Of a stretch of DNA of 64,000 nucleotides, positions 25,019-50,894 are shown piece after piece (positions within the stretch are counted from its first letter, which is position 1; every line of letters starts with the position of its first letter). The DNA is taken from NCBI GenBank assembly GCA_963771355.1, contig CAVYTA010000008.1, positions 75,700 through 139,699 of the forward strand. The letters run 5' to 3'. Origin of the DNA: an uncultured Candidatus Rokubacteria bacterium. GTDB taxonomy: Bacteria; Methylomirabilota; Methylomirabilia; Rokubacteriales; CSP1-6. The position numbers and the translations under genes were made by a program. Below the pieces are notes generated by a model. It saw only the letters and a program-made list of their open reading frames with translations. It made no database searches and was not told the origin of the DNA.

Positions 25019-28000
25019 CAGGCTTTCGGCCTTCGGCGCGCCACGCTGGCCGCCACCAGGTCGCGCACTTCGGCCAGCAGCTCGTCGCGGCCGTGGGTGC
25101 CCTTCTGGAGAATCTTCTGCACGTAGCCGTTGAGCCGCTCCCGGTCGTCGTGGGACAGGTCCTTGGCGGTGACGACGATGATGGGGATGGCCCGCCAGAG
25201 CTCGTGGCGGCGGAACTCGGCGACGAACTCGAAGCCGTCCATCTCCGGCATCATGAGGTCGAGGAGGACGACGCTGGGGGAGACATCGCGCAGGCGGTCG
25301 AGCGCCATCCGGCCGTTGGCCGCCTCCACCACCTCGAAGCCCTCGCTCTCGAGCATGCGCCGGAGCAGTGCGCGGGCGCCGGAGTCGTCGTCCACCACCA
25401 GGACGGGCCGGTCGCGCCGGTGCTGCTTCAGCACCGTCACCAGCCGTTCGCGATCGATCGGCTTGGTGAGGTAGTCGGAGGCGCCGAGGGCATAGCCCAG
25501 GTTCCGGTCGTCGACGATGGTCAGCATGACCACCGGGATGCCGGCCACGTCCGCGTCGGCCTTGAGGGCGGAGAGAACGGCCCAGCCGTCCATCCCCGGC
25601 ATCATGACGTCGAGGGTGATGGCGTCGGGCCGCAGCTCGCGGGCGCGGCGGAGCCCTTCCTCGCCGCCGGCGGCGGTGACGACGCGGAAGCCCTCCCGGG
25701 TTAGGAAACGCTGCATCAGGTCCCGCACCGCCGCCTCGTCGTCGATTACGAGCACGGTGCCGATGCCCGATGCCACGGGCTCGGCCGGCGCGGCGGGCGC
25801 GGCGGCTTCCCCGGCCGCCTCGGCGACCCGAGCGGGCAGCCGGATCGTGAAAGTGCTGCCGTGGTCCGCCTCGCTCTCGGCGGTGACGTCGCCACCCATC
25901 ATCCGGCAGAGCCGCCGGCTGAGCGCCAGGCCGAGGCCGGTGCCACCATACCGGCGCGAGGTGGCGGCATCGGCCTGGGTGAATGCCTCGAACAGCCTGG
26001 CGAGCTGCTCGGGCGTCATGCCAATGCCGGTGTCGCTGACCGCGAAGGCGAACCACTCCTGACCGTCCACCAAGTCGCGGCTTACCGCCAGCGTCACCGC
26101 CCCACGCTCGGTGAACTTGCAGGCGTTGCTCAGCAGATTGAACAGGGCCTGGCGCACCTTGGTCAGATCCGCGTGCATCGAGCCGATCGCGTCGGGGCAG
26201 CGCACCTCCAGGCGATTGTCGTTCCTGGCCGCCAGGGGCTGGATCACCGCCGCGATGTCCTGGACCAGGCGCGCCACGTCGAAGCTCTCGAGGTAGAGCT
26301 CCATCTTGCCGGCCTCGATCTTGGAGAGATCGAGCACGGCGTTGATGAGCTCCAGCAGGTGCTTGCCGGCCGCGTTGATCTTCTTGAGGTCGTCGGTGAA
26401 CTGCTCGGCCCCGAGATCGGCGGCGTCCTCCTGGAGCATCTCGCTGTAGCCGATGATGGCATTGAGCGGCGTACGCAGTTCGTGGGACATGTTGGCGAGG
26501 AACTCGGACTTGTGACGGTCGGCGGCCTCGAGCTGGCGGCTCTTGTCCCCGATCTCCCGGAAGAGGCGCGCGTTCTGGATGGCCACCGCCGACTGGGCGG
26601 CAAATGTCCTGAGCAGATCGATGACCTCCGAGGAGAACTCCCCGGGTGTCTTCTTGGAGACGGTGAGACCTCCGACCAGGTGATCCTCGCGCAACAGCGG
26701 AATGCCCAGGAGCGCCCGCGTTCCCGTCTGCAACAGGACATCTCGAAGGTGGCCGCTGTACGCCCCCGCCTCGGCAATGTCGGCAACCTGGACCGGCTCG
26801 AGCGTCACGGCCATGCGCCCGGCGACACCCTCGCCCCGTCGGATCGGCGCCCGCCGGGCCACGTCAACCACTTCCTCGGCGAGATTGTGGGTGGCACGGA
26901 ACAGGAGTTCCTCAGCCCGCTCGTCGTACTCGTAGACCGTGCACGAGTCGGTGCCGGCGAGCTGGTTGGCGCGGGAGACGATCGTGCTGAGCACGGTCTC
27001 GAGGTCGAGCGTCGAGCCGAGAGCCTGGCTGACCTCGCCCAGCGCCTTGAGCTCCTGGACCGACCGGGTGAGCTGGGCCGTGCGGGCTTGCAGCGCGTCG
27101 AGCAGCCGCGCGTTCTCGATGGCGATGGCCGCCTGGTCGGCGAAGGTTTCCATCAAGGCGATCTGATTGTCCATGAATGGCCGGACCTCGTGCCTGTGGA
27201 TCACGATGACCCCCAACAGCTCGTCCGCCCTGAGCATGGGGATCACCAGCACGGTCCGGTAAGGAGCAACCTGCTGCCCAGCGTAGGTGTACTCGGGATC
27301 GCTCCGGATATCGTGGATGTGGATGGTGCGCCGCTCAAGGGCCGCACGCCCGACGCCGCTCCCGCGTCCGGGCGCGATGGGATTCCGCTCGGTGAATGCT
27401 CTCAGCTCCGGGGAGACGTTGTGAGTGGCCACGACGCGCAGAACCTGACCGTCGAAGCGGAAGATCAATGCGCGTTCGGCCTCGCACAGCCTGATCGCGT
27501 TCTCGGCCAGCGTCTCGAAGACCGGCTGGAGATCGAAGGTGGACCGGCCGATCACCTTGAGCAGCTCGCTGGTCGCCGTCTGCTGCTCGAGCGCGACCCG
27601 CAGCTCGCCGTTTCGCTCCTCCAGTTCGGTGAACAGGCGGACGTTCTCGACGGCGATGACCGCCTGATCGGCAAAGGTCTGGAGGAGAGCAATCTGATTG
27701 TCGGAGAACGCCCGTGGCGTTTCCCATATGTGGACGTTTATTGTGCCGATGGGGGACCCGTCACGAAGCATCGGCACCGCCAGCACGCTGGCAAGGCCGG
27801 CACCTGCCACCGCACGCACGCTGTAGTCTCGATCCCCTCGGACGTCTGGAATATGAACCGGTCGGCCTGTCAGGATGGTCCGCCCGGACGCGCTTCCCAT
27901 GTGCGGCGCCATCGGGAATACGCTTCGCAGGGCCTCGGCCTGCTCAGGGGCCGTATTGTCGAGAGATTGCAGGTGCATTAATTCGCCGTCATACCTCACG

Positions 28001-31000
28001 ACCTGGGCGCTACCGGCCTCACACAGCCTGCGGGCATTGTGGGCGATCGTGTCGAAGACCGGCTGGACGTTGGTCGGCGAGCTCGAGATCACGCGGAGAA
28101 TCTCGCTCGTCGCCGTCTGCTGCTCGAGCGCCTCGGTGAGGTCTGCGTTCTTGGTCTGCAGCTCGGTGAGCAGCCGCGCATTCTCGATGGCGATGGCGGC
28201 CTGGTCGGCGAAGGTCTCCATCAGGGCGATGTGGCCGTCTGTGAACCGCCGGACCTCGTGCCGGTAGATGACGATCACTCCGAGCAGCTCCTCGGCTCTC
28301 AACATGGGGATCGCGAGCAACGTTCTGACAGGGTCCGCCACGTGCACCGCGTAGGTGACTTCCGAGTCGGCCAGCACGTCATGGATGTGGACTGTGCGCT
28401 TCTCGAGAGCAGCGCGAGCCGTGCCGCTATGGCGGCCGGGAGCAATAGGATTGCGCTCGATGAATGATTGCAACTCGGGGGAGACATTATAGAAGGCCGC
28501 GGCTCGCAGGAGCTGAGCGTCGAAACGGAAGATGACCGCCCGCTCGGCTTCGCACAGCCGGACCGCGTTCTCGGCCAGCGTCTCGAAGACCGGCTGGAGC
28601 TCGAACGTGGACCGCCCGATCACCTTGAGCAGCTCGCTGGTCGCCGTCTGTTGCTCGAGGGACACGCGGAGCTCGCTGTTGCGCCCCTCCAGCTCGGTGA
28701 ACAGGCGCACGTTCTCGATGGCGATCACCGCCTGGTCGGCGAAGGTCTGCAGCAGCCCGATCTGCTTGTCCGAGAATGGCGCCACGTGATCCCGGGCAAC
28801 GAGGATAGTCCCGATGGGCACGTTGTCGCGAAGCATCGGGACTGCGAGAGCGCTTCGATAGCCGGTCGTTGTTGCGATCGGAAGCGTATATTCGGGATCC
28901 TCAAGCACGTCTGGCACCTGGACGACGTTACGGGTCAAGATCGCCCGTCCGCTCACGCTCCCCCGGCTCGGAGGCAGCGGGTATGTCCGCCCCAGCGCAT
29001 CCAATCGCTCCGCGCTGAGGTTGTGGTGCGCCACGAGATGCATGAGCCGCCCGTCAAACTGAATGACGAGACCATTGACTGCCCCCGAGAGTTGCGTGGC
29101 GCTCGCGGCGATCGCTTCGAAGGTCGGGCGGACGTCGGTCGGGGAGCTGCTGATGACGCGCAGGATCTCGCTGGTCGCCGTCTGCTGCTCGAGCGCCTCG
29201 GTGAGGTCGGCGTTCTTGGCCTGGAGCTCGGTGAGCAGCCGCGCGTTCTCGATGGCGATGGCCGCCTGGTCGGCGAAGGTCTCCATCAGGGCGATCTGAC
29301 CGTCCGTGAAGGGCTGGACCTCGAGTCTGTAGATCGTGATCACGCCCAGGAGCTCATCCGCTCGGAGCATTGGTATCGCAAGCATGGTTCGAGTGGGATC
29401 AATCGTCTGCGCCCCGTAAGTGTATTCGGGATCGGCCTGGATGTCGTGAACGTGCGTGGTGCGCCGATCGAGTGCAGCGCGACCCGTGGTGCTTCCGCGT
29501 CCGAGGGGAATAGGATTCCTCTCGATGAAGCTCTTGAGATTGGGGGACACGTTGTGGGCGGTCACGACTCGCAAGACCTGACCGTCGAAGCGGAAGACCA
29601 AAGCTCGCTCGGCAGCGCACAACCGGACCGCGTTCTCGGCCAGGGTTTCGAAGACGGGCTGGAGATCGAAGGTGGAGCGGCCGATCACCTTGAGGAGCTC
29701 GCTCGTCGCGGTCTGCTGCTCGAGGGCGACGCGCAGCTCGGAGTTCCGCGCCTCCAGCTCGGTGAACAGGCGGACGTTCTCGATGGCGATGACGGCCTGG
29801 TCGGCGAAGGTCTTCAGCATCTCGATGTGGGCGGTAGCGAACCGTCCGGGTGCGCTGCGCTGGACAACGATGGTGCCGATCGGACTGCTATCCGCCCGGA
29901 GCATCGGCACGGCAAGCAGGCTTCGCCCGGCTGCCAGGTTGACCTGATATTCCGAGTCCTCCATCACGTCCGGGATTTCGGCGATGGCACACGTGAGAAT
30001 CGCCCGCCCCGAGGCTTGTGAGTGGCTCGGACGCATCGGGTACGCTCGCCGCAGACCTTCCAGCACGTCTGGCGTCACGTCGTGTGCCACGACGTGAAGC
30101 TGCTCGCCGTCGAACCGATGCAAGACGCCGAAGCTCGCCCCGCACAGCTGCACCGCGTTCCGGACGATGGCATCGAACACCGGCTGGACGTCGGTCGGGG
30201 AACTGCTGATGACCCGCAGGATCTCGCTCGTCGCTGTCTGCTGCTCCAGGGCCTCGGTGAGGTCGGCGTTCTTGGCCTGCAGCTCGGTGAGCAGCCGCGC
30301 GTTCTCGATGGCGATGGCGGCCTGGTCGGCGAAGGTCTCTAGCAGGGCGATCTGGCTGTCGGTGAACGGTCGGACCTCGTGTCTGTAGATCAAGATCACG
30401 CCCAGCAACTCGTCCGCCCTGAGCATGGGGACCGTGAGTATGGTTCGAAACGGGTCCACCTGCCGCGAGCCGTAGGTGTACTCGGGGTCGGTCTGGACAT
30501 CATGGATGTGGACGGTGCGCCGCTCGAGGGCGGCGCGCGCCGCGGCGCTGCTCCTTCCGGGCGCAATGGGATTCTGCTCGATGAAGGCTCTGATCTCGGC
30601 GGAAGCATTGTGAGTGGCTACAACGCGCAGGAGCTGACCGTCGAAGCGGAAGATGAACGATCGTTCTGAGTCGCACAGTCTCACCGCGTTCTCGGCCAGC
30701 GTCTCGAAGACCGGCTGGAGGTCGAAGGTGGAGCGCCCGATCACCTTGAGCAGCTCGCTGGTGGCCGTCTGCTGTTCGAGAGCGACGCGGAGCTCACTGT
30801 TGCGTGCCCCGAGCTCGGTGAAGAGGCGCACGTTCTCAATGGCGATGACCGCCTGATCGGCAAACGTCTTGAGCAGCTCGATCTGCTTGTCGCTGAAGGG
30901 GCGGACCTCCGTCCTGCGGATCAGAAGGCTGCCGATCGCCACCCCTTCGCGCACCAGAGGCGTCGCGAGTGTCGTGTGATGTCCTGCGGCTCTGGCCAGC

Positions 31001-32494
31001 GCCCGGCCTTCCGCGAACTCGGCTTCATCCGCCTCAGCGAGATTGTGAACATGGATCGGCTGCCGGTCGATGATCGCCCGGCCCATGACCGAGCCGCGGG
31101 TGAGCGGGAACGTCCGGCCCAAGACGCTGGCGATCGGTCCGTAATGGGCTGCGATCCGACCCGTCTGGCCTTCCACGAGCACGAGCACCGCATCGAAAGC
31201 CGCACATACTCGGGCTGCGTTCTCGGCGACGGTATCCAGCACGGGCTGAAGGTCAGTCGGTGAGCCCGCGATCACGCGCAGGATCTCGCTCGTCGCCGTC
31301 TGCTGCTCCAGGGCCTCGGTGAGGTCGGCGTTCTTGGCTTGGAGCTCGGTGAGCAGCCGCGCGTTCTCGATGGCGATGGCCGCCTGGTCGGCGAAGGTCT
31401 CCATGAGAGCGATCTGACCGTCGGTGAACGGCCGCACCACATGCCGGTAGATGAAGATCACTCCGAGCAGCTCATCCGCGCGCATTATGGGGATCCCGAG
31501 CGCGGTGCGAATGGGGATTGTGTCGGCCTGTGCGAGCCTGATAGGTGTGCTCTGGGTCGGCCTGGACATCCGGAATGTGGATCGTGCGTCGCTCGAGGGC
31601 GGCGCGCCCGGTGGCGCTGTTGCGCCCGGGGAAATGGGATTGCCCTCGAGGAACGCCCGGCGTCCGGCGGAGACATTGTGCGTGGCCACGAGACGGAGCA
31701 GCTGACCGTCGAAGCGGAAGATGGCGGCGCGTTCGGCCTCGCACAGCCTGACCGCATTCTCGGCCAGCGTGTCGAAGACCGGCTGGAGGTCGAAGGTGGA
31801 CCGCCCGATCACCTTGAGCAGCTCGCTGGTCGCCGTCTGCTGCTCGAGGGCGACGCGGAGCTCGCGGTTGCGTGCGTCCAGCTCGGTGAACAGGCGCACG
31901 TTCTCGATAGCGATCACGGCCTGGTCGGCGAAGGTCTGGAGCAGCGCAACCTGCCGGTCGGTGAAGGGCAGGGCCTCGGTGCGGCGGAGCTGGATCACGC
32001 CGATGGCAGCGCCATTCTTCAGCAAGGGAACACTCAGCAGCGTCCGGTGGCCGAACCGTTGCGCGTAGCGACTCCCCTCCGGGAACTCACCGATCTCGGC
32101 CTGCACGTCGGCAATGTGGATGGTCCGCGCCTCCAGCACACTCCGACCGGCGATGGTGCCTCGGGCGAGGGCCAGAGTGAACTCGCCGACCGGGTCTACG
32201 GCGATCGGCCCATGATGGGCGACGAGGAGGAGTCGGTCGCCTCGCGAGCCGGAAGATGGTGGAATCCTGGGCCTCGCAGAGGCGGCCCGCGCTGGCCGTC
32301 ACGGCGTCGAGTACCGGCTGGATGTCAATCGGCGAGCTGCTGATGATCCGGAGGATCTCGGCGGTGGCCGTCTGCTGCTCGAGGGCCTCGGCAAGCTTCG
32401 CCGCGAGCCCGTCGCTTCTCGCGCGCTCCTGCTCGAGCGCCTTGCGCAGCGCCTCGACTTCGAGGGCGAGATCAACCTTGGGCGCCGGCGCCAT
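25018..32494 (-). CDS. giant hybrid sensor histidine kinase: N-terminal coiled coil, about 12 tandem GAF domains, HisKA, HATPase_c, two receiver domains (~2,490 aa). A +1/-1 frameshift near 32245 splits it into ORFs 32087-32497 and 25018-32139
   Basis: GAF domains joined by conserved linkers alternating [34 protein letters not shown] and [33 protein letters not shown]. His[20 protein letters not shown], HATPase_c, then REC x2. The frame upstream of the listed start still encodes GAF sequence ([33 protein letters not shown]), and the 136-aa upstream ORF carries the same repeat unit. Confidence 0.8.
26500..32100. repeat. about five tandem copies of a ~1.07-kb DNA repeat (one di-GAF unit each) inside the giant kinase gene; linker segments about 90-95% identical over 100-200 nt
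   Basis: Near-identical plus-strand segments recur with 1,060-1,080 bp period at about 27541, 28601, 29681, 30721 and 31801 (type 1 linker) and about 28081, 29161, 30221 and 31281 (type 2 linker). Confidence 0.6.
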
Positions 32495-34555: not shown

Positions 34556-35436
34556 GCGGGGGTGGCATCGGGGTCGTGCGCGCCCATCTCGCCAAGATTC
34601 CCCCGGCGAACACCGTGGCGGAGCGGCGGGCGCAGTACGACCGGGCCGAACGGGTCTTTCCCTTGCCGACCGATGTCAGCGTCAAGCCGGTGCACGTGCC
34701 GGCCATCCCCGCGGAGTGGATCGAGCCGTCGGCCGCGCGCGAGGGCGCCTTCGTGCTCTATCTCCACGGCGGCGGCTACGTGATCGGCTCGCCGAGGTCG
34801 CACCGTCACCTGGCCGCCTCCATCGCGGTGGCCGCGCGCGCCTCCGTGCTGCTCCCCGACTACCGGCTCGCGCCCGAGCACCCGTTCCCGGCCGCGCTCG
34901 AGGACGCGGTGGCGGCGTATCGCTGGCTGCTCGATCGCGGCACCGCCCCGCGCCGCATCGTCATCGCGGGCGACTCCGCGGGAGGCGGCCTCACCGTGGC
35001 CACGCTCGTCGCGCTGCGCGAGCGCGGGGTGCCGCTGCCCGCCGCCGGCGTCTGCATCTCGCCGTGGGTGGACCTCACCGGGAGCGGGGCCTCCTATGCC
35101 ACCAAGGCCGCCTCCGATCCCATCGTGACCCGCGACGGCGTGATGGAGATGGCGCGCGCGTACCTGGGCGCCACCGACGCCCGGACCCCGCTGGCCTCCC
35201 CGCTCTTCGCCGACCTCACCGGGCTCCCGCCGCTCTTCATACAGGTTGGCACCGAGGAAGTCTTGCTGGACGACGCGATGGAGCTGGCCGAGCGCGCCAA
35301 GGCGGCAGGGGTGGAGGCCACGCTGGAGCTGTGGCCGGAGATGGTCCACGTCTGGCAGTGGTTCTTCCCCATGCTCGACGAAGGCCGCACCGCCATCGAC
35401 GGCATCGGCGCCTTCGTGCAGGCGAAGACGGCGTGA
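34552..35436 (+). CDS. alpha/beta-hydrolase fold-3 esterase/lipase (HGGG ... GDSAGG)
   Basis: Oxyanion-hole motif LHGGGY and nucleophile elbow GDSAGG. GTG start overlaps the upstream stop. Confidence 0.75.
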   Translation: MSGGGIGVVRAHLAKIPPANTVAERRAQYDRAERVFPLPTDVSVKPVHVPAIPAEWIEPSAAREGAFVLYLHGGGYVIGSPRSHRHLAASIAVAARASVLLPDYRLAPEHPFPAALEDAVAAYRWLLDRGTAPRRIVIAGDSAGGGLTVATLVALRERGVPLPAAGVCISPWVDLTGSGASYATKAASDPIVTRDGVMEMARAYLGATDARTPLASPLFADLTGLPPLFIQVGTEEVLLDDAMELAERAKAAGVEATLELWPEMVHVWQWFFPMLDEGRTAIDGIGAFVQAKTA

Positions 35437-40606: not shown

Positions 40607-41890
40607 ATGGCCTTCGACTACAAGCAGTACTTCGGTGACATCGTGGTGGCGCAGAACCTCGTCACCCGGCCGGAGGAGCGCACCTGGCGGCTGGCCGCGC
40701 CCCCGCCCGATGCCGAGCATCACGACATCGTGCTCTATCTGGGCTGCAATGTCCTCCGCACCTCCCACATGATCAAGACCGTCACCGCCATCTTCGACCG
40801 GCTGGGGCTGGACTATGTCGCGGTGGGCGGGCCGACCTACTGCTGCGGCATCGTGCATCACCAGAACGGCGACACCGCCGCCTCCACCGGGATGAACCGG
40901 CGCACGAAGGAGCTCTTCGAGCGCTACACGCCGCGCGAGGTCGTGATGTGGTGCCCGTCCTGCATCTACTTCTACGACGAGGTGCAGAAGCTCGACCTTC
41001 CATTTCCCACGCGGCATACGGCGGAGTTCCTCGCCGATCGGCTGGGCGAGCTCCCCCTCTCACCGGTGGCGGCGCGCCGGGTAGCGCTGCACGGCCACGG
41101 CGTCGGCGAGGCACGCCGGCGCGAGGGCGAGGCCGGCCGCCGGCTGCTGGCCGCGGTGCCGGGCCTCACCGTGGTGAGCCTCGAGCCCGACGAGCGCTTC
41201 GGCCGGAGCTGCAACCCCGCGCTCATGCAGAACCTCGGCCCCGAGGGCTGGCGCGCCCTGGCCCTGGGCGAGCTCGACCGCGCCCTCGCCGCGGGGGCGG
41301 ACACCTTCGCCGGCATGTATCACGGCTGCCAGCGTCAGCTCTGCGCCTTCGAGGCCGAGCGCCCCATCACCATCGAGCATTACCTGACGACGTTCGCGCG
41401 GGCCCTCGGCATCGAGTTCGAGGACACCTTCAAGAAGTACCGCCTCTGGGCCGACCCCGACCGCATCTTCGAGGACTCCACGCCCTGCCAGCAGGGGAAT
41501 GGCGTGGACCCCGCCCGCGCGCGCGACCTCATCGCGCGGACCTTCGTGCCCATCGGCGCGGTGGCGCCCGGCCCGGCCGCGGGGACCTGGGCGCAGGTCA
41601 GTCGGGTACTGGCACGCCCGACGCGCCTGCTTGGTAGCTGTGGAGGCGGCGTGCGCGCGGGGCGGGGGGCGTGTGACATCCTCGCATTACAACATATGGC
41701 CCCGATGCTGAGAACCGTCGGGCTCATCATGTCATTCACATTCGGCCTTCTCGCGGCGCGTTCGCGGAGAAGCGCAGCCGCGGGCGAAGGTCTCTCGGAT
41801 AGGGTTTCTCGCGACTTGCCGACGCCCCACGATGAGGCATTGCGGCAAGGCCTCCACGAGGTCAACTACGTGGAGGGCCGGAACATCTAG
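40607..41890 (+). CDS. CCG-domain (cysteine-rich) Fe-S oxidoreductase, HdrB/GlcF-like; the 3' ~250 nt appear to derive from a decayed binding-protein gene (in-frame fusion, native stop lost)
   Basis: CCG-domain cysteines (LGCN, PTYCCG, CPSC; second copy around GCQRQLC). After about residue 330 the sequence becomes low-complexity and then matches the N-terminal motif of PF04392-type binding proteins (EALRQGLHEVNYVEGRNI). Confidence 0.55.
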   Translation: MAFDYKQYFGDIVVAQNLVTRPEERTWRLAAPPPDAEHHDIVLYLGCNVLRTSHMIKTVTAIFDRLGLDYVAVGGPTYCCGIVHHQNGDTAASTGMNRRTKELFERYTPREVVMWCPSCIYFYDEVQKLDLPFPTRHTAEFLADRLGELPLSPVAARRVALHGHGVGEARRREGEAGRRLLAAVPGLTVVSLEPDERFGRSCNPALMQNLGPEGWRALALGELDRALAAGADTFAGMYHGCQRQLCAFEAERPITIEHYLTTFARALGIEFEDTFKKYRLWADPDRIFEDSTPCQQGNGVDPARARDLIARTFVPIGAVAPGPAAGTWAQVSRVLARPTRLLGSCGGGVRAGRGACDILALQHMAPMLRTVGLIMSFTFGLLAARSRRSAAAGEGLSDRVSRDLPTPHDEALRQGLHEVNYVEGRNI

Positions 41891-42720
41891 ATAGAGCGTC
41901 GATATTCGGAGGGTAAGCCCGAGCGGCTCCCCGACTTCGCCGACCGAGCGGTTGGCCTCAAGGTTGACGTCATCGTGGTCGACGCCTGCGGCGCATCGCT
42001 CAATGCCGCCAGTCAAGCTATCAGCGCGATCCCCATCGTCGTCGCTGCGTGTAAGATGACCTCGTTGCGGCGGGGCTTATCTCCAGCCTCGCCGACCGGG
42101 AGGTAACATCACCGGGCTGTCAGAGCTCACTCCGGAGCTCGGGGCCAAACGTCTGAGTTGCTGAAAGAGGCCGTCCCAGGATGAAACGCGTGGCCGTTCT
42201 ATGGAATACGACCTATTCGGAGCGGCTCAGTGCGCAACTTCCGCTTCTGGTCATCCGATTGGGTAGCGATGCGAGGCGGCAGTCCCAGGCGTTGGGCATC
42301 GACGCTGCAATCGGTAGAGATCCGTGGTCCCGACGATTTCGATACCGCGTTCTCAGCCATGACCAAAGAGCGAGCGGACGCGATGATTGCATTCTCGGAG
42401 CCCCATCGATCGTCCTTCATCGGAAAACGCATCGCGGATCTCGCGGCGAAGATCCGCCGGCCGGCAATGTATGCATCCCGAGAGGTGGCGGAGGCGGGAG
42501 GACTGATGTTCTACGGGCCGAGCAACGCTGACATGTTCCGGCGGGCCGGTGTTTATGTAGGCAAGATCTTGAAAGGGGCCAAGCCCGCAGATCTCCCCGA
42601 TGGAGCAACCCACGAAGTTCGAGCTGGTGATCAACCTCAAGGCCGCGAAGGCGCTCGGCACTCGCGATCCCGCAGTCGATCCTTCGCCGAGCGGACGAGG
42701 TGATCCGAGTGAAGGAGATG
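41695..42720 (+). pseudogene. degenerate ABC transporter substrate-binding protein of the PF04392 ('ABC transporter substrate binding protein') family; in-frame stops and at least 3 frameshifts
   Basis: Three-frame reading recovers ...GLHEVNYVEGRNI*IERRYSEGKPERLPDFADRAVGLKVDVIVV...IPIVVAA..., ...LQSVEIRGPDDFDTAFSAMTKERADAMIAFSEP...RIADLAAKIRRPAMYASREVAEAGGLMFYGPSNADMFRRAGVYVGKILKGAKPADLP..., then EQPTKFELVINLKAAKALG. These are canonical motifs of this family. Confidence 0.6.
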
Positions 42721-42727
42721 TGTCGCG

Positions 42728-43567
42728 GTGTGGCTGGCGGGCGTCCTGCTTCTCGGCGCGACGGCGCCGGTACTGGCCGAGACGGTTCTGGAGAAGATCC
42801 GACGGACCGGGGTCCTCACCGCGGGGACGCGCGGCATCTCCATCTCTTTCGCATCCATCAACGAGAAGAACGAGTGGATCGGCTTCGCCATCGATCTCCT
42901 GGAAGCCATCCGGGCCCGCCTGGAGAAGAAGCTCGGCAAGCCCATCAAGCTCGAAAAGAGAGAGGTCACCGCGGAAACTCGCATCGGAGCCTCGTGGTCA
43001 AGGGGACCATCGACGTCGAGTGCGGGGTCCACCACCTACACTCGGAGCCGGGACGCGGCGGTGGACTTCTCCATCATCTTCTTCTTCACTGGTAATCAGC
43101 TCCTGGTGAAGAAGGGGAGCGGGATCAAGGGCCTGGCGGACGTGGCCGGCCGGCGGGTCGGGGTCGCCCGCGAAACGACCGGCGCACGAGCCCTCCGTGT
43201 TTCCCAGCCCAAGGCCAACGAGGTGACCTTCCCGGACCATCCGGCTGGCTTCCTGGCCCTCGAGCAGGGGAGGATCGCCGCCTATGCCGCCGACGGCATC
43301 CTGCTGGCCGGCTTCGCCGCGAAGGCCAGGAACCCCAAGGATTACGAAGTGGTGGGGGACTTCTTCTCGAAGGATCCCTACGCCTGCATGGTCCCGGAGA
43401 ACGACTCCAAGTGGCGCGACTTCGTGAACCATACCTTCATGGAGCTTATTGACAATGGAAAGTACTTCGAGCTCTACGACAAGTGGTTCGGGAAGCGGGC
43501 CGTGTTCCCCTATCCGATGTCGGATCAGGTTCGCAATTACATGATCATGCAGTCCATGCCGGAGTGA
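42728..43567 (+). CDS. polar amino-acid ABC transporter substrate-binding protein (PBPb/SBP_bac_3), copy 1; carries a compensating -1/+1 indel pair that garbles about 12 residues
   Basis: SBP_bac_3 sequence throughout, except TAETRIGASWSRGPSTSSAGSTTYT. The alternative frame there gives the expected LVVKGTIDVECG. Indels at about 42990 (CC homopolymer) and 43024-43027 (GGGG). Confidence 0.65.
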   Translation: MWLAGVLLLGATAPVLAETVLEKIRRTGVLTAGTRGISISFASINEKNEWIGFAIDLLEAIRARLEKKLGKPIKLEKREVTAETRIGASWSRGPSTSSAGSTTYTRSRDAAVDFSIIFFFTGNQLLVKKGSGIKGLADVAGRRVGVARETTGARALRVSQPKANEVTFPDHPAGFLALEQGRIAAYAADGILLAGFAAKARNPKDYEVVGDFFSKDPYACMVPENDSKWRDFVNHTFMELIDNGKYFELYDKWFGKRAVFPYPMSDQVRNYMIMQSMPE

Positions 43568-43583
43568 CCGTGGAGGGCGTCCG

Positions 43584-44436
43584 ATGAAGAGATGCGTTGC
43601 GGTGTGGCTGGCCGGTGTCCTGCTTCTCGGCGCGGCCGCGCCGGTCCTGGCCGAGACGGTTCTGGAGAAGATCCGACGGACCGGGGTCCTCACCGCGGGG
43701 ACGCGCGGCATTTCCATCCCGTTCGCGTTCATCAACGAGAAGAACGAGTGGATCGGCTTCTCCGTCGATCTCCTGGAGGCCATACGGGCCGGCTGGAGAA
43801 GAAGCTCGGCAAGCCCATCAAGCTCGAAAAGAAGGAGATCGACCTGGTGACCCGGTTCAGCTGGTGGCCAACCGCGCGTGGACGTGGTGTGCGCGGCCGA
43901 CACCAACACCCGGGGCCGGGACGAGACGGTAGACTTCTCGCTCAACTTCTTTTTTACCGGCGCCCAGCTCCTGGCGAAGAAGGGGAGCGGGATCAAAGGC
44001 TTGGCAGACGTGGTCGGTAAGCGCGTGGGCGCCGCCAAGGGGTCCACCGGCGAGAAAGCCCTGCGCGCCTCCCAGTCCAAGGCTGAACTGGTGACCTTCC
44101 CGGACCACGACGGAGGGTTTCCAGGCGTTGGAGCAAGGGAGGATCGTCGCCTACGCCAACGACGGCATTCTTTTGGTCGGCCTCGCTGCCAAGGCCAGAA
44201 ACCCAACGGACTACGAAGTGGTGGGGCGCTTCTTCTCGAAGGACCCGTACTCCTGCATGGTTCCGGAGAACGACTCCAAGTGGCGCGACTTCGTGAACCA
44301 CACCTTCATGGAGCTGATCGACAACGGGAAATACTTCGAACTGTACGAGAAGTGGTTCGGGGAGCGCGGGGTAGTTCCCTATCCGATGTCGGATCAGGTT
44401 CGCAATTACATGATCATGCAGTTCATGCTAGAGTGA
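43584..44436 (+). pseudogene. paralogous polar amino-acid ABC substrate-binding protein, copy 2, disrupted by at least 4 single-base indels
   Basis: Same family and same N- and C-terminal sequences as copy 1 (about 85% aa identity), but coding is spread over three frames. Shifts at about 43787, 43858, 43876 and 44118, all in short homopolymers. Confidence 0.6.
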
Positions 44437-44473
44437 GCTGGAAGCGCTGACTGGAAGCGCCACGGAGGCGACC

Positions 44474-45295
44474 ATGGACGACTACCTCGAGGCGAACCGG
44501 CGGCTATGGGATGCGTGGACGCCCCTCAACGTCGCCTCCGAGTTCTACGACGTCGAGGGCTTCAAGGCGGGTCGCGTGGACCGGCCGTCGATGCTCCACC
44601 AGCTCGAGGCGAATCTGGTCGGCGACGTCACGGGCCGGACGCTCCTCCACCTGCAATGCCACTTCGGCATGGACACCATCCGCTGGGCCCGGCGGGGGGC
44701 GCGGGCGACCGGCATCGACTTCTCCTCCGCGGCCATCGAGGCCGCGCGCCGGCTCGCCGCGGAGATGGGGGTGCCGGCGACCTTCGTCGAGAGCGACGTC
44801 TACGCGCTCCCCGACCGCCTCGACCACCGCTTCGACGTGGTCTTCACCTCGCATGGGGTCCTCTGCTGGCTGCCCGACCTCGTCCGCTGGGCGGAGGTCA
44901 TCGCCCACTTCCTCGCGCCGGGCGGCGTCTTCTGCATCGTCGAGGCCCATCCCGTCGGGATGATCTTCGATGAGACGCGCGCGGACGGCGAGCTGCGCGT
45001 GCGGTTCCCGTACTTCCAGGGGCCCGAGCCCATCCGCGATGAGCACCCCGGCTCCTATGCCGCGCCGGACGCGCCGCTGCAGAGCGTGGAGCACGTGTGG
45101 ATTCACCCCATCGGGGAGGTCGTCGGCTCGCTCCTGCGCGCGGGGCTCCGCCTCGAGTCCTTCGCGGAGTACCCCTTCATGGGGTGGCGCTTCCTGCCCT
45201 GGATGGAGCAGCGTCCCGACGGTGCCTGGCAGCTCCCCGGCGCCGCCGCCACCCTGCCGCTGATGTTCTCGCTCACCGCGCGCAAGCCCGCCTGA
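44474..45295 (+). CDS. class I SAM-dependent methyltransferase
   Basis: Rossmann MTase motifs (LLHLQCHFGMDTI..., VFTSHGVLCWLPD). Confidence 0.7.
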   Translation: MDDYLEANRRLWDAWTPLNVASEFYDVEGFKAGRVDRPSMLHQLEANLVGDVTGRTLLHLQCHFGMDTIRWARRGARATGIDFSSAAIEAARRLAAEMGVPATFVESDVYALPDRLDHRFDVVFTSHGVLCWLPDLVRWAEVIAHFLAPGGVFCIVEAHPVGMIFDETRADGELRVRFPYFQGPEPIRDEHPGSYAAPDAPLQSVEHVWIHPIGEVVGSLLRAGLRLESFAEYPFMGWRFLPWMEQRPDGAWQLPGAAATLPLMFSLTARKPA

Positions 45296-45582
45296 CCCTT
45301 CAGGAGTCCTTCTCTCGCCTCCTTCCTCCAGCGCGAGAGCATGAAGGGGTGGATGTCCATCGTTTCCTCGGCCCGATCGCTCTGCCCATCCGACACCTCC
45401 CAGCGTTAGCCAGAAGTGTCTACTTTATCGAGGGAGATTCAACGGTCGGCTGCATGCGTTGTTAGGCGGCATCCTGCGTTGCCGCTCCTCTAGTAGACGC
45501 TAACGTGATTGTGGTTTTTGCCGGCCTACGCCCGGCCACTCCCAATCAACATTTCGGCGCTCATCACAAGTCGTCCCTCGGA

Positions 45583-46348
45583 CTAGAATTGCGTAAGGCG
45601 TGCGCGCACCTCTTCTCGAACTGCGCGTCGGCTGGGCTCAGGTAACGCGAGATAGGCCTGTGACATTTGCCCGGCCCCTGCCTCGATCGGCGCCCAGTAC
45701 TCGTAGAACGACTCAACAATTCCTTGGTGCGTCTCGCGCGTCACGCGAACATCGCGAAAACCTGCCTCGCAGATAAGGCGTTCGAGCTGAGGTACGTTTC
45801 CGAAAGAAAAAGACAGGTGGAGTGCATTCCTCTGGTCGGGATAGATAGCCACTGAGCGTTTCGGCAAGAACGCCCCACATCGGCGCGCGATCGGGTGACG
45901 AGATGACGCATACGGCAGCTCGGCAGCCGGGCCGCAAAACACGTCGAAATTCTGCGAGGCCACGCGCGGGATCAGGGAAGAACATGAGGCCGAGCTGACA
46001 AATCACCGCGTCGAAAGTGGCGTCTGGGAACACAAGGCCCTGCCCGTCTGAAACGACCGCAAGAAACCGTGCGTCGGACAACCGCGCGCATGCCTCGTCG
46101 AGCATCGCGGGGGAAATGTCCGAACCGACCACAAGCCCCGAGTCTCCGACGTGCCCCAGTGCCAATTGCGCTGCCTCGCCCGTCCCCGTGGCAACGTCGA
46201 GTACTCGATTCCCATCCCTGATCTCAGCGGCGGCCAACAACGCTGGAACGAACAGTCGCGACCAGCGTCCGATGTATTGCGCATATGCCGATCCATCGAC
46301 GCGCCGTCCACGCGGTGCGTGCATCCCTGGTCCCCACGTAACGCTCAT
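45583..46348 (-). pseudogene. class I SAM-dependent methyltransferase (UbiE/COQ5-like), 1-nt frameshift near 45845-45850
   Basis: N-terminal ORF has motif I VLDVATGTGEAA and post-I DISPAML. The C-terminal ORF continues the MTase fold (LHLSFSFGNVPQLERL) in another frame. Confidence 0.55.
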
Positions 46349-46375
46349 CTGCGCTCCCTTAAGGGGTACGCGGAA

Positions 46376-47219
46376 TCACACAACCTTATAGCGCTTCGCG
46401 AGTTGCGAGCCTGCCTCGGCTCCGACCAGTTGCTCAAGCTCCCTTGCGGCTGGCATTGCGTTGCCGAAGGTCACCGTAGCGCCGGTCTCGTGGAGTTCGC
46501 GCACAAAGTCCTTCATCGCTTGGTACGTCACGACGACGCTCTGAATAGGATAGATCGCAAGTTTGATCCCAGACGCGAGGACTGCTTCCTTCGAGGCATC
46601 GAGCACGAAACTGGCCATGGGCTTGCCTACTGTCGTTGCGAAGGAAGGCGTTTCAGCGAGGGGCAGGCCGGTAACAATCAGCATGTCAGCTCCAGCCTCG
46701 GCATACGCTTGGCACCGTTCGGTTGCCTCCTCCAACGAGCGTCCGATATAGAGTGCCTCACAACGCGCGATGAGGAGGGTGTCCGGGTCACGCAGAGCCT
46801 CAAGAGCGGCGCGAATCTTCTCCGTGGCAACGGGTAGTGGATGCAGCGTGCCGCCAGGTCCATAGAGCTTTCCTGGTGCGTGATCCTCAATGTGCATACC
46901 CGCAACGCCCGCAGCTTCGAACCGTCTCACGTGGTGATAAGCGTTCACGGCGTTGCCCGCACCTTCCTCCAGATCGGCGATCACCGGAACGTCTGTTGCT
47001 TCAACCATGAGGCGCGCTTGTTCGAGCAATTCGCTCATGGTTAGGAGAGACTGGTGCGGAAGTCCCCAGCGACTTCGCGGCGCAACCGTAGCTACCGACG
47101 TAGACGGCCCGAAAGCCTTGCCGTGCAACCAGTTTCGTTGTCAGGAGGTCGTGCGCCCCTGGGACGATTACTGGAGCGGTGTCTCGTATGAGTTCCCGTA
47201 GCCGGCTCGCGCCTTTCAT
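46376..47219 (-). pseudogene. isocitrate lyase/PEP mutase superfamily enzyme (methylisocitrate lyase or carboxyvinyl-carboxyphosphonate phosphorylmutase-like), 1-nt frameshift at GGGG near 47064-47067
   Basis: N-terminal 72-aa ORF (LRELIRDTAPVIVPGAHDLLTTKLVARQGFRAVYVGSYG) and 250-aa ORF (TMSELLEQARLMVEATDVPVIADLEEGAGNAVNA...GMHIEDH) are contiguous family motifs in different frames. Removing one G restores KSLGLPHQSLLT. Confidence 0.6.
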
Positions 47220-47334
47220 GAGTCCTACCTTTCAAAGACTGGTTCTGAAAAGTTCGCGTAGTTCAGTCGTCCAACGTGCCGTATCAGCCGCGGCGCGCAA
47301 CGCCGTCGGCTGCATGCGGAGGTTAGAGGGCTGA

Positions 47335-47632
47335 TCAGAGGCGCGACCGCCAATAGCCGGGGCGACGACGACCGTGGGCCACGGCCACGATCTCGATGTC
47401 CTCACCGCGAAGGAGGTACACCAGGCTGAAGGGTATCGTGGAAATACGTATCGGCGTGCGCGGCTGCCGTACGTGGCCATGTTCGGGGGCTCGCCTCGAT
47501 CGCGGCAATGGCCCGCGCCAGTTCCTCTCGAAACGCGTGCCCGGCTTCGAAACTTCTCGCAGCATACCAGTCATACGTGGATTCCGCCTCCTGCGCTGCA
47601 GCAGGATGGAACCGGACCGCCGCTGAGGCCAT
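47335..47632 (-). pseudogene. ParE/RelE-family type II toxin, frameshifted
   Basis: N-terminal ORF (VRFHPAAAQEAESTYDWYAARSFEAGHAFREEL) and an overlapping ORF in another frame carrying the conserved C-terminus (FPFSLVYLLRGEDIEIVAVAHGRRRPGYW). Confidence 0.5.
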
Positions 47633-47857
47633 TCAGCGCTGGTACAACCGCGCTCTCAGCTCTTCCCAGGGAACCGCCTGGAGCTGGCCAGAATACAGCT
47701 CAGAGATTAGACGCTCTATCTCGGCCTGACAGGCTTCCTCGGCACCTTCCTCAGACTCAGCGTCTAAGCTGTCGACTAGAAGAAGAATGAGTGCGGCTCG
47801 CTCCTTCGGATCTAGCTGCATCGCTTCCTCAAATAGCTCCCGCGCCGATCTCGCCAT
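47633..47857 (-). CDS. putative addiction-module antitoxin component, 74 aa
   Basis: MARSARELFEEAMQLDPKERAALILLLVDSLD... has family-typical N-terminus and size. Sits immediately upstream of the ParE-like ORF. Confidence 0.5.
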   Translation of the reverse strand: MARSARELFEEAMQLDPKERAALILLLVDSLDAESEEGAEEACQAEIERLISELYSGQLQAVPWEELRARLYQR

Positions 47858-47979
47858 GCGTCGATCCTACCATCCCATTACTACGTACGTTTGCCCCTGT
47901 AACGCCACGCTCAGCGGCCGGGGCGAGCAACGTGAGCCTCCGGTACGTTGGAGCGTGATGTAGGGCAGAGTGTCATTGC

Positions 47980-48420
47980 TCAGTAGATATGGCAGTGAGA
48001 CTCACTGGTGGGCGGTTTTTCACCTTCACGAGTGAGAAGACCGCTGACTGAGAAAGCATGGCCTGCATAGGCGCCTTCGCCGAAAGCGCTCTCGCAGCTG
48101 GTACACCACACTCTGGCTGACTGGTGAGAGTGTGTCGTCTCCAGACAGAGGCTGGGCGACTCTCGAATCGTAATAGCGCTCTCGAAATGTGACGCGCGCA
48201 TAGGAGTAGATGACGTCAAAGAGGTTAGGAGCATAGCAGATATAGCGCACAGGCAGGGCGGCGGCGTAGCGGATGAACAAGACGCTGATTCAGCTCTGCG
48301 ACGAGTCTGGATCTGACGGGAAGGAGGACGTCGCGGGAGAAGCGCAGGATAGTGTAGTAAGCAAGCTCATAGACGCGCGCGACCAGGTACGTAAAGACAC
48401 TCTCTCTCCTCTCGCATGAA
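47980..48420 (-). pseudogene. decayed tandem duplicate (copy A) of the hypothetical gene at 48696-49236
   Basis: Peptide motifs YYDSRVAQPLSGDDTLSPVSQSVV and AFGEGAYAGHAFS recur here in two different frames. DNA similarity to 48780-49160 (ctgattcagctc..., ctcatagac..cgcgcgaccaggta). Confidence 0.35.
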
Positions 48421-48695
48421 TAGAGGCGCTAGAATGCGTAGCAGGACAATCTCGCAAGTAAAAGCGACAGTTGGGAGGATCGTCATGCGTTCACTTTTCT
48501 CTCTCTGAGGAAGATGGGGGACACGGTCACTCTATGATGTGGTCAGCGCGTCGCAGCACCGACGGCAGAATGGTGACGCCGAGCGCTTGTCGGTTTTGAG
48601 ATTGACCCCGCGCTCATCGGTCGGCCCGAACGCTCAGGATAACTTGCGGCGCGAAGCGCCGTCAGGTTCATCCTGCTGTTAGCCAGCGCTCCCGA

Positions 48696-49236
48696 TCAAG
48701 AGAACGCAGAACTCTGGAAGTAGGTCAGTCGATCTGCCCACGGCCTTCGCCCCGAAGCGGGCCATCGACCGTCGCGAATCAGCTGAGCGCCCATCGAAAA
48801 GGCATGGCCAGCGTACGCACCTTCTCCGAACCCGTTCTCGAAGTGATCCACCACGGTCTGGCCTGTGGGGGTGAGTGCCTCGTCCCCCGTCAACGACTGC
48901 ACGGTCCTGGAGTCATAGTAGTGGCCCGCGGAAGACCGGATGGCCATCGGCGTTGTTGATCTCGATGAGCCCTTGCACATAGCCGCTCATTCGCGCGGGC
49001 CGCCCGCTCGCATCACGGATGACAATCCTCTGATTCAGCTCCCCGCGGAGTCGGGCCTTGATCGGTAGTTGAGCGCCGCCCGTGAAGCGTAACGTCGCCT
49101 CGTAGGCGATCTCATAGCCACGCGCGACCAAGTAGGTAACTCCTTGCTTATCCTCACGGACGAACTCGGGTGCGCGGATACGGCGTAGCTCAACCTCGCA
49201 GGTGAATGGGCCAGTGGGCAAGGGTTCTGATGCCAT
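48696..49236 (-). CDS. hypothetical protein (~180 aa), probably with a frameshift near 48913-48980 joining ORFs 48913-49236 and 48696-48980
   Basis: Two overlapping ORFs with coding character. Copy B of a tandem duplication. No recognisable domain. Confidence 0.35.
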
Positions 49237-49339
49237 TGCGCGCGCCCCCTCTCGGATCGATGTTGTGAGGCCTCATCGACTGTGATCGCCACGGTGAGCC
49301 CGCTGTCACTGGTCCTGCTGCCCTTGTCTGGCTAACTAG

Positions 49340-49555
49340 AATTATCTTGGTCTGTGTAGCGTGGGGGACCAAGCGAGGGGGGCTGTGTAGCATCGTTGGG
49401 GTGGCTCCTTGTCCTTCAAGGATATCTCAGGTGGTGCGTAGTTGGTTGGAGTCTGGGGGGTGTGGCGGGACGAGATAGCTGGACCTGTGTAGCGGGGTGG
49501 AGGCTGCGGGCGTGGGGGAGGGGTCGGAACGCATCCGGCACCGTGTAGCCTTGCC
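49340..49555. repeat. four spaced copies of the motif yTGTGTAGC followed by G-rich tracts, in a lower-GC intergenic region
   Basis: tctgtgtagcgtggggg (49342-49358), gctgtgtagcatcgttgggg (49385-49404), cctgtgtagcggggtggagg (49484-49503), ccgtgtagccttgcc (49541-49555). Confidence 0.35.
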
Positions 49556-49659
49556 GGCTAGGCCCCGGACTTCAAACCCCGTGATGGGCGACGCTATGCC
49601 CAAGAACCGCGGCCTACTGAATTAAATACGCGTTCGCTCCGCCACGGCGGGCGGCCCGC

Positions 49660-50310
49660 TCACACCATCAAGAGGCCTCGGCGCATCCCGATGGCCACCG
49701 CCTCGGTGCGGCTCCGCGCGCTCAGCTTGTCGAGGATCACCGCGATGTGGAACTTCACGGTGTGGGTCGAGATGCCGAGGCTCTTGCCGATGGCACGGTT
49801 GCCTAGCCCCTCGGCCATCATGCCCAGGATCTCGAGCTCGCGAGGGGTGAGCGGGTCGGTCCGGGACTCCGCCGGGGTGCGGCGAACCACCGTGTCGACG
49901 GAGACGGGGGGCGCCGACGGGTGCAGGACGACGAGACCCGCCGCCAGCGCTTCGATGCCGGCGGCGATCTCGTGAGCGGAGGCGTCCCGGGGCAGGATCG
50001 CGCGCACGCCGGCACGCAGCAGCCGGGCGAAGGCCGCCGGCGCGACGCCGCCGCCCAGCAGCATGATGGGAGGCCGGCGGGCGGTCCCCGACAGCGCGCG
50101 CAGGAAGGCCTCGACGGGCCGCGTCCCCGGGTCGATCAACAACACGTCCGCGGAGACCGCCGACCCTGCCGGGTCGCCCGTCTGGTCGGCCGCCGGGGAC
50201 GGCGGCGCGGCCAGCCGCCATCCCGATCGGGCAGCGACCAGCGCTTCCAGCCGCGCCTGCGTTGTCGGGCTCGATGCGAGCACCGCGACGGCGATCACCG
50301 TGGGGCGCAC
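49660..50310 (-). CDS. LuxR/FixJ-family transcriptional regulator (degenerate receiver-like N-domain + C-terminal LuxR HTH)
   Basis: C-terminal HTH LTPRELEILGMMAEGLGNRAIGKSLGISTHTVKFHIAVILDKL. Probable GTG start at 50310; the listed ORF start at 50460 overlaps the protease gene. Confidence 0.65.
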   Translation of the reverse strand: MRPTVIAVAVLASSPTTQARLEALVAARSGWRLAAPPSPAADQTGDPAGSAVSADVLLIDPGTRPVEAFLRALSGTARRPPIMLLGGGVAPAAFARLLRAGVRAILPRDASAHEIAAGIEALAAGLVVLHPSAPPVSVDTVVRRTPAESRTDPLTPRELEILGMMAEGLGNRAIGKSLGISTHTVKFHIAVILDKLSARSRTEAVAIGMRRGLLMV

Positions 50311-50894
50311 CGCATCGCGAAGGTCTCGACCACTCGGCTCGGCACGGCCAGGGCCAGCCTGCCCGCGATCATCGCGTTGACGCCGACCACCCGTCCGCCG
50401 GCATCGGCCATGGGCCCGCCGGAGTTGCCGGGGGCGAGGCGGAGATCGGCCTGAATCCACCGGGGCCCCGCGTGGTGGCCCGGTGCCGGCGCCGCGTGCA
50501 CGATCCCCGTGACCACGGCCCCGACCAGTCCGAACGGATGGCCGACCGCCAGGACCAGCTCGCCCGCGCGAAGACGATCCGAGTCGCCCACCCGCGCGGC
50601 CGGAAGATCCCGTGCCTCCACGCGGAGCAGAGCAAGATCCAGGTCTCGGTCCCAGGCGACGAGCGCAGCCGGCAAGCGACGCCCATCCGCCAGGACGACC
50701 TGCGCGCCGGACCGCGCCGACTCGGCCTGGGCCACGACATGAGCGCTCGTCACGATGAGCCCGTCGGAGCGCCAGATGACGCCCGACCCGCTGGTTCGCC
50801 CCCTGGATCGCAATTCCACCGTGTTCTCCCGCAGCCGACCGACGACATCGGCGAGGTCGCTCGTCAGCAGATGCGGCCGCTCCTCCACCTCCAT
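50295..50894 (-). CDS. trypsin-like (S1C) serine peptidase without PDZ domain, 199 aa
   Basis: Catalytic triad context TSAHVV / DLALL / GNSGGP. ATG directly follows the stop of the upstream HtrA-like gene. Confidence 0.7.
   Translation of the reverse strand: MEVEERPHLLTSDLADVVGRLRENTVELRSRGRTSGSGVIWRSDGLIVTSAHVVAQAESARSGAQVVLADGRRLPAALVAWDRDLDLALLRVEARDLPAARVGDSDRLRAGELVLAVGHPFGLVGAVVTGIVHAAPAPGHHAGPRWIQADLRLAPGNSGGPMADAGGRVVGVNAMIAGRLALAVPSRVVETFAMRCAPR

Follow-up and report, generated by a model that had tools for sequence, protein, structure and literature searches.

Organization of the locus

The locus described here lies in a 64,000-nucleotide (nt) stretch of genomic DNA from an uncultured Candidatus Rokubacteria bacterium (GenBank assembly GCA_963771355.1, contig CAVYTA010000008.1, positions 75,700 to 139,699 of the forward strand). 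The whole stretch is called the window, and positions are counted from its first letter. Between two conserved genes, one for a cysteine-rich oxidoreductase-like protein and one for a LuxR/GerE-type regulator, the window carries segment A (41600-44444; 2,845 nt) and segment B (45299-49634; 4,336 nt), which stand on either side of an intact methyltransferase gene. Segment A is a cassette of solute-binding-protein (SBP) genes. Segment B holds genes of a UbiE-type methyltransferase, a member of the phosphoenolpyruvate (PEP)-mutase/isocitrate-lyase family and a toxin-antitoxin pair, together with two copies of a hypothetical gene. An initial annotation had read the interval 41640-49620 as a single degraded island of roughly 8 kb.

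The central gene (44474-45295, + strand), overlooked in that annotation, encodes an intact S-adenosylmethionine-dependent methyltransferase of 273 amino acids (aa; Pfam Methyltransf_11/12/25), and its guanine-plus-cytosine (GC) content at third codon positions (GC3) is 0.95. It is present in every allele seen. An exact-protein look-up of the 273-aa product returned three metagenome contigs, L001, L002 and L003, in which the protein is identical; the gene shows 0 mismatches to L003 over 800 nt, and the 90% cluster of the protein has 80 members. The methyltransferase is native-looking and conserved, and it lies outside the variable DNA. A scan for it in species-representative genomes found nothing closer than 63% identity and hence gave no synteny information.

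Over 10 kb on each side of the locus, L001 is 99.3% and L002 96-99% identical to the window. Both contigs keep the methyltransferase and lack 41600-44444 and 45299-49634 (blastn breakpoints), with ~70 or ~12 nt at site A and 3 nt at site B. L003, an 8.1-kb contig that matches window positions 41583-49627, holds both segments. The junctions are clean: segment A begins at the stop of the oxidoreductase-like gene and ends at the ribosome-binding site of the methyltransferase, and segment B fills the space from the methyltransferase stop to that of the convergent LuxR/GerE gene. Each segment also occurs without the other, since L172 has an intact segment A and L087, L176, L177 and L183 have B-type cargo without A. 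Segment A is absent from L183, where the flanks are 96% identical, and from 13 of 13 contigs in a survey of the sister lineage (L168-L171 and L174-L182); the contigs without it, L001 and L002 included, have 12-70 nt at site A. Related contigs present at least three alleles at site A and at least five at site B. The flagged 8 kb is two independent presence/absence segments around a conserved methyltransferase, not one island, and synteny with relatives replaces the single pair of boundaries near 41.6 and 49.6 kb with limits of 41600/44444 and 45299/49634.

To the left of segment A is a core gene (40607-41590, + strand) for a 327-aa cysteine-rich (CCG-domain) Fe-S oxidoreductase-like protein (Pfam CCG E = 8e-7). 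At its stop position (41588-41590) the window reads TGG, in place of TAG in L001, L002 and L168-L171 and TGA in L172 and L003, so that the open reading frame (ORF) continues to 41890 (40607-41890), ~100 codons into segment A. To the right, convergent with the methyltransferase, is the core LuxR/GerE-type regulator gene (49660-50460, - strand; Pfam GerE E = 1.6e-18), which is conserved in L001, L002, L087 and L183. Proteins at least 90% identical to the products of the flanking genes are widespread in soil metagenomes. Elsewhere on L002, at ~37.5-39.5 kb, a molybdopterin-oxidoreductase gene is fragmented and ~10% diverged from the window between neighbours that differ by <1%, and looks like another imported or low-quality block. 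That contig also has many indel-split genes, as in a noisy long-read contig.

The solute-binding cassette of segment A

Segment A opens with a multiply disrupted solute-binding gene of the PF04392 (ABC_sub_bind) family (41705-42708, + strand; Pfam E = 7e-13). Compared with the intact 335-aa orthologue on L172, its frame is interrupted by 18 indels, each 1-2 nt long, and codon 64 is an in-frame stop. The window-specific indels (41759-42714) are ordered along the gene: the first ten include nine deletions, and the final 11 are insertions throughout. Selection for restoration of the frame was considered and found no evidence, as the compensating indels fit a three-frame random walk (seven minimal loops, probability 0.13). 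Next comes a nearly full-length SBP_bac_3 (PF00497) gene (42713-43567, + strand, with an ORF at 42728-43567; Pfam E = 6e-19). Its frame is shifted by +1 at codon 2, and a +2 and a +1 shift at codons 93-105 cancel each other out. Its closest homologue, protein P0146 on L172, is ~88-89% identical (tblastn), and GC3 is 0.85 in the window versus 0.91 in L172. A second SBP_bac_3 gene (43584-44436, + strand; tblastn, with Pfam E = 1e-23 on reconstruction) has ~7 one-base frameshifts. As DNA, the two SBP_bac_3 genes repeat every ~870 nt at 76-92% identity.

The same order is found on L172, where the end of the CCG-domain gene (92.8% identical) is followed by an intact PF04392 gene (335 aa) and two SBP_bac_3 genes (286 and 284 aa); the cassette as a whole is 88% identical to segment A of the window. 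Because L172 has an intact cassette at the same locus, the tandem SBP pair is ancestral. The paralogous pair noticed in the initial annotation is real, and its presumed origin by local duplication is not. The tree of the cassette is ((window, L172), L003), with informative sites interleaved and not clustered, and the closest named homologues of the SBP genes come from Rokubacteria metagenome-assembled genomes (MAGs). Segment A is a long-standing presence/absence polymorphism within this genome group and not obviously a foreign import. The suggestion of accessory or horizontally acquired DNA is borne out for the absence of the segments from L001 and L002, but for segment A, intact at the same locus in L172, a foreign origin is not obvious. 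No permease or ATPase gene belongs to the cassette, either in the window or in L172, making it an orphan binding-protein cassette.

Cargo genes of segment B

Nearest the central methyltransferase, segment B contains a UbiE-type methyltransferase pseudogene (45583-46348, - strand; Pfam Ubie_methyltran E = 3e-18). A frameshift near codon 175 is common to the window and L003, and a GAG-to-TAG stop is found only in the window. The PEP-mutase/isocitrate-lyase-family pseudogene that follows (46376-47219, - strand) matches PEP_mutase (PF13714, E = 4e-44) only after two frames are joined. Its frame is broken near codon 49 by a one-base insertion (A) at a non-homopolymer site, identical in the window and L003. 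The protein is otherwise 94-97% identical to intact 280-aa homologues (P0001, P0143 and P0144), and GC3 is still 0.64. Intact homologues on L084-L086 are surrounded by unrelated genes, which argues that segment B is not a conserved operon.

The ParE-family toxin gene (47335-47632, - strand) is split by a frameshift. Its reconstruction matches PF05016 over profile positions 1-88 (E = 1.4e-9), the two real ORFs lie in different frames and cover positions 1-45 and 41-88, and the ORF in L003 is just 48 aa. Directly upstream, an Unstab_antitox antitoxin gene of 74 aa (47633-47857, - strand; PF09720, E = 1.5e-9) is intact, as it is in L003; toxin and antitoxin abut at 47632/47633. Exact-protein look-ups of the PEP-mutase fragment, the antitoxin and protein P0145 returned no match. 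Between 46.4 and 47.4 kb, L003 departs from the window by 4 mismatches per kb and by no indels. Since the frameshifts in the PEP-mutase, UbiE-type methyltransferase and ParE genes are common to two independent assemblies, they are real, and decay in the centre of segment B is established.

The remaining cargo includes two genes of a 169-aa hypothetical family. Copy B (47980-48492, - strand; tblastn with protein P0265) has at least three frameshifts in the window and one in L003. Copy A (48725-49236, - strand) has two in the window and is an intact 169-aa gene in L003 (L003 positions 7209-7718, - strand). Between the copies lies a 22-codon C-terminal remnant of a PF04392 gene (48533-48598, - strand), detected in both the window and L003 by tblastn with the L172 protein (E = 4e-4). 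The two hypothetical copies had been described as a tandem duplication; both are present, but at only ~60% identity they are old paralogues. The family has 171 homologues of ~165-170 aa (59-95% identity), from metagenomes only, and no Pfam match; one of the homologues also contains a carboxymuconolactone-decarboxylase domain, as a fusion protein. For the 169-aa protein, AlphaFold predicts a 10-strand all-beta barrel (predicted local distance difference test score 94.6). The best structural matches in the PDB were weak ones to Diels-Alderase-like beta-barrel cyclases (PloI4, PyrI4 and AbyU; E = 0.01, template modelling scores 0.37-0.41), and no function was assigned from them. Two related contigs (L167, 5654-20243; L173, 1510-8510) have junk-rich islands beside tyrosine-integrase genes or fragments, and pieces of these gene families recur there: an 80-aa fragment of PEP mutase, DUF6841, a PF04392 fragment and the 169-aa protein. 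In the window itself, all gene families named in the initial annotation were found by Pfam: PF04392, the two SBP_bac_3 genes, the UbiE-type methyltransferase, PEP_mutase, and ParE with its antitoxin.

Composition of the interval

The lower GC content and atypical composition reported at the outset are confirmed by sliding-window GC and tetranucleotide profiles. The interval 41640-49620 has 62.3% GC, versus 69.4% in the rest of the window and a whole-window mean of 68.5%. It is the lowest-GC 8-kb stretch of the window, the next non-overlapping one having 66.4%, and its 1-kb bins differ from those outside (Mann-Whitney p = 7.5e-5). Both named dips are real, with GC fractions of 0.60 at 45251-45750 and 0.55-0.56 at 47751-48500. 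By tetranucleotide L1 distance the interval is the most deviant part of the window (0.33-0.37, against 0.14-0.21 for typical 4-kb windows), and GC3 periodicity is lost across it save at 42.7-43.5 kb and 44.5-45.3 kb. The second most atypical tetranucleotide profile belongs to a giant 2,427-aa ORF (25018-32298, - strand), which has 64-65% GC and internal repeats of ~1.07 kb that are 73-87% identical.

For the most part the low GC is intrinsic to the genes carried. In every allele, intact genes included, B cargo has a GC3 of 0.61-0.73, compared with 0.92-0.97 for core genes and 0.91-0.97 for the core genes that neighbour it. The PEP mutase of L084 (81% identical), on an unrelated high-GC contig, likewise has a low GC3 although its neighbours have 0.91-0.96. 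Because intact homologues of the B cargo are equally low in GC3, the low GC of segment B comes from the cargo itself and not from decay. In segment A, the SBP genes have a GC3 of 0.91-0.92 with 0.58 and 0.40 at first and second codon positions, and the PF04392 gene has a GC3 of 0.75. The low total GC of segment A is largely intrinsic to the cassette genes.

Alleles and end modules at site B

At least five states of site B are found between the same convergent genes. The site is empty in L001 and L002, and the window and L003 share the cargo described above. In L087 and L177 it is occupied by a PF04392 fragment, a lipocalin gene, an intact UbiE-methyltransferase gene and a second PF04392 fragment. 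A UbiE-methyltransferase gene is directly adjacent in L176. L183 has DUF3024, Unstab_antitox and beta-carbonic anhydrase genes. Short end modules are common to these alleles in a mosaic arrangement. One is the non-coding right-end module of segment B (49326-49634, ~300 nt), conserved in L003 and L183 and in part in L087, where it stands before a PF04392 gene fragment. The short repeated motifs noticed earlier correspond to CYGTGTAGC (+ strand), present in this module in four copies within 200 nt (49352, 49383, 49485 and 49541) and nowhere else in the 64 kb, where 0.45 copies are expected. The array could be an operator or a set of recombination sites.

Beside the stop codon of the LuxR-type gene is a GC-rich palindromic module, CGCTCCGCCACGGCGGGCGGCCCGC (49635-49659). 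Empty alleles have a single copy of the palindrome directly after the methyltransferase stop. In L183 a copy of this palindrome (the 12-24-nt module CACGGCGGGCGG) stands on both sides of the cargo, a duplication seen only in that allele; the empty allele matches what deletion between the two copies would give. The left copy may have been lost from the window and L003 through a 42-nt deletion between two GACCC repeats. The palindrome was also considered as a dispersed repeat of the repetitive extragenic palindromic type, which was rejected as it is not dispersed in the window. At 49.57 kb, the transfer RNA (tRNA)-Sec-like appearance of ...GGACTTCAAACC... was rejected as well, as the flanking stem is unpaired and no tool supports it.

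Identity between the window and L003 changes in blocks along the locus. It is 82% in segment A, 100% in the methyltransferase, 96-98% at 45.4-46.3 kb, 99.5-100% at 46.4-47.5 kb and 83-95% at 47.6-49.2 kb. Selection and noise do not produce such blocks, and the simplest explanation would be homologous recombination between diverged lineages through the methyltransferase and the flanks.

Interpretation and alternatives

Taken together, these data make it probable that the locus is a flexible, strain-variable accessory locus of a high-GC soil bacterium, an ordinary kind of genome variation in which two independent segments surround a functional methyltransferase. Related strains fill site B, the gap between the convergent genes, with varying low-GC3 cargo or leave it empty. 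In the mechanism proposed, the cargo genes would be dispensable, so that inactivating mutations are not removed, and dead DNA would be lost by deletion between short direct repeats, such as GACCC at the left end of B or the duplicated CACGGCGGGCGG module whose deletion would leave the empty allele. Alleles would pass between lineages by homologous recombination through conserved flanks and methyltransferase, which would explain why identity to L003 is mosaic. The frameshifts of the PEP-mutase, UbiE-type methyltransferase and ParE genes would have been inherited from an ancestor common with another strain, and the solute-binding genes and the two 169-aa genes would have acquired frameshifts specific to the lineage. 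The cargo in this genome may accordingly be non-functional or nearly so. The polymorphism with its boundaries, the identities of the genes, the lesions common to both assemblies in the B centre, the intact cassette of L172 and the deviating composition of the cargo are observed directly; we infer the loss of function, the direction of events (gain or loss) and the deletion and recombination mechanisms.

Several observations weigh against this interpretation. Repeated loss, repeated gain and transfer by recombination would each account for the patchy distribution of segment A, so that either polarity is possible. The right end of L003 departs from the window after AATTAAAT, for which reason the genomic context of that contig is not fully known. 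For the host, assigned as probably Rokubacteria-like, the few named cluster members of the flanking genes carry conflicting labels, one being Candidatus Rokuibacteriota and two Pseudomonadales (on a 7-kb MAG contig). The boundary direct repeats anticipated in the initial annotation were searched for in the window, and direct or inverted matches flanking either segment are at chance level only. The substitutions in segment A also bear on the question. Those on the window branch (147) fall 29:28:87 on the three codon positions, compared with 24:19:67 on the L172 branch (p = 0.88). The excess of substitutions per gene, at +19, +1 and +14, approximately equals the counts of one-base indels, 18, 4 and 7. 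Neutral decay that yielded ~30 frameshifts should leave several-fold more substitutions, spread evenly over codon positions.

The last points bear on a first alternative, according to which the segments are real and most of the frameshifts in segment A and the 169-aa genes are long-read consensus errors, arising from few or mixed-strain reads. The cassette would then be intact or nearly so, and only the centre of B decayed. Related contigs carry Flye-style names, and genes of L002 are fragmented by indels at <1% divergence. Against L172, frameshifting indels number 18, 3-4 and 7 in the three genes of segment A; almost all are single-base, three being 2 nt long, and there are about as many insertions as deletions. 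The codon-position pattern of the window branch equals that of the intact orthologue; the ratio of GC-to-AT to AT-to-GC changes is similar on both branches (79:37 in the window, 51:28 in L172); and in each gene excess mismatches stand to indels at ~1:1, the proportion seen in raw long-read error. Lesions are concentrated in the parts where co-circulating alleles differ, the methyltransferase and the B centre being clean, and the A allele of the window has no independent sequence at >90% identity to confirm it.

Other features speak for genuine lesions. The indels of segment A lie outside homopolymers, and the flanks, a five-gene ATP-binding cassette (ABC) operon and ORFs of 1,401 and 2,427 aa are intact elsewhere in the window. 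Local quality is high in the B centre, to judge from the absence of indels between two independent assemblies. Lesions of the substitution type are also present, namely the TAG at codon 64 of the PF04392 gene, the lost stop of the flanking gene and the TAG in the UbiE-type methyltransferase. The strain bearing the insertions was probably the majority in the sample, for the assembler to thread through it. Segment A of L003 has fewer indels than that of the window, and different ones; as the sampled lesions differ, decay of A would have been independent in the two. A chimeric consensus of L172-like and L003-like alleles was rejected in view of the 147 window-unique substitutions and the interleaved informative sites. 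Overall, we consider consensus error as the main source of these frameshifts possible but, on balance, somewhat doubtful. The pseudogene status of segment A is treated as unproven because there is no sign of relaxed selection, yet several points argue against a purely technical origin; the same status applies to both 169-aa genes, and a technical share in their lesions is a tentative explanation that we take seriously while leaning away from it. The erosion described in the initial annotation is accordingly firm for the B-centre frameshifts common to two assemblies and, for segment A, maybe partly technical.

A different reading is that cassettes or integrative elements enter site B by site-specific recombination, with a recombinase that either acts in trans or has since been lost; the duplicated palindrome would be the attachment core, and the end modules would be element ends. 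It would account for at least five cargoes between the same two genes, for end modules common to alleles of different cargo, for CACGGCGGGCGG on both sides in L183 versus one copy in the empty allele, and for the four CYGTGTAGC repeats in the right end; other junk islands (L167 and L173) lie near integrase genes. However, neither the alleles seen nor a six-frame Pfam scan of unassigned DNA yielded a recombinase gene or a fragment of one. That scan (E <= 1) and the identified genes likewise contained no integrase or transposase in the window, as first reported. The repeat is short (12-24 nt), imperfect and without a left copy in the window and L003, the palindrome is not dispersed, and the right-end module resembles a 5' region left from a PF04392 gene. 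Short modules are combined in mosaic fashion in the alleles, a pattern that illegitimate and homologous recombination would be expected to produce. We regard this reading as unlikely. Its strongest form, in which site B is a dedicated cassette-exchange site where diverse low-GC3 cargo is swapped by a recombinase encoded elsewhere between a left module and the 300-nt right module with its four CYGTGTAGC repeats, copies of the GC-rich palindrome marking the limits, is slightly less probable still; if true, this lineage would have a so far undescribed system of integron-like or hairpin-targeting type.

Finally, insertion of one contiguous, horizontally acquired 8-kb island that is now eroding would fit the low GC and atypical tetranucleotides across the interval and the joint presence of A and B in the window and L003, but it is highly improbable given a methyltransferase that is present in every allele, with a core-like GC3 (0.95) and 100% identity beside segments at 82-95%, and given segments found independently in relatives with separate clean junctions.

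Relation to known systems and significance

Flexible genomic islands and islets are accessory loci that vary between strains while keeping a fixed place between conserved core genes. The present locus behaves as a small islet or hotspot of this type, together with ordinary pseudogene turnover. It shares with such islets a fixed position, alternative cargo or an empty site in near-identical strains, a lower GC3 of the cargo and mosaic identity. It differs in that the segments are tiny (2.8 and 4.3 kb), much of the cargo is apparently non-functional and two sites are split by one conserved gene. Atypical composition, strain-specific presence and a toxin-antitoxin module recall the classical genomic island integrated at a tRNA gene by an integrase, but the locus is without an integrase, a tRNA or transfer-messenger RNA (tmRNA) target, or flanking direct repeats in the window. 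No tRNA or tmRNA fragment of the kind proposed for the boundaries was found there, the sole ARAGORN match being 6 kb off within a coding region, and Rfam families had no match in the region. That match, a tRNA-Ser(GGA) at 35295-35381 (+ strand), lies inside a region matching an Abhydrolase_3 coding sequence of L001 and is probably a false positive.

Decay of bacterial pseudogenes with a deletional bias is established from studies of pseudogene turnover. Frameshifts and nonsense mutations in dispensable genes, clean loss in sister strains and GACCC at a deletion endpoint agree with it, whereas the indels of segment A, nearly all single-base and without substitutions of the relaxed-selection kind, are atypical of natural decay. 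The ParE and Unstab_antitox genes resemble a type II toxin-antitoxin module (ParE/RelE with Unstab_antitox) in having antitoxin then toxin, adjacent and on one strand, from both Pfam families, but in both alleles seen the toxin frame is disrupted and the antitoxin is an orphan. The PF04392 and SBP_bac_3 families are those of the orphan ABC solute-binding-protein clusters that are expanded in large-genome soil bacteria; here the cassette is without permease and ATPase, and its copies are disrupted in the deposited sequence.

Rokubacteria are reported to have genomes of 6-8 Mb with 66-71% GC, 8-17% non-coding DNA and unusually high cell-to-cell heterogeneity (PMC5712423), a description that the strain heterogeneity of this locus fits. 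For scans of such genomes, the locus carries a warning, as "degraded islands" in long-read assemblies can mix real pseudogenes with consensus errors concentrated where strains differ. It also exposes an unannotated, conserved family of 169-aa proteins predicted to form beta-barrels and a hypervariable intergenic site that may be mined for recombination mechanisms. For the biology of the organism its importance is limited, and its value is that of a worked example of a small accessory locus that varies between near-identical strains, from empty site and alternative cargo to intact and decayed cassette.

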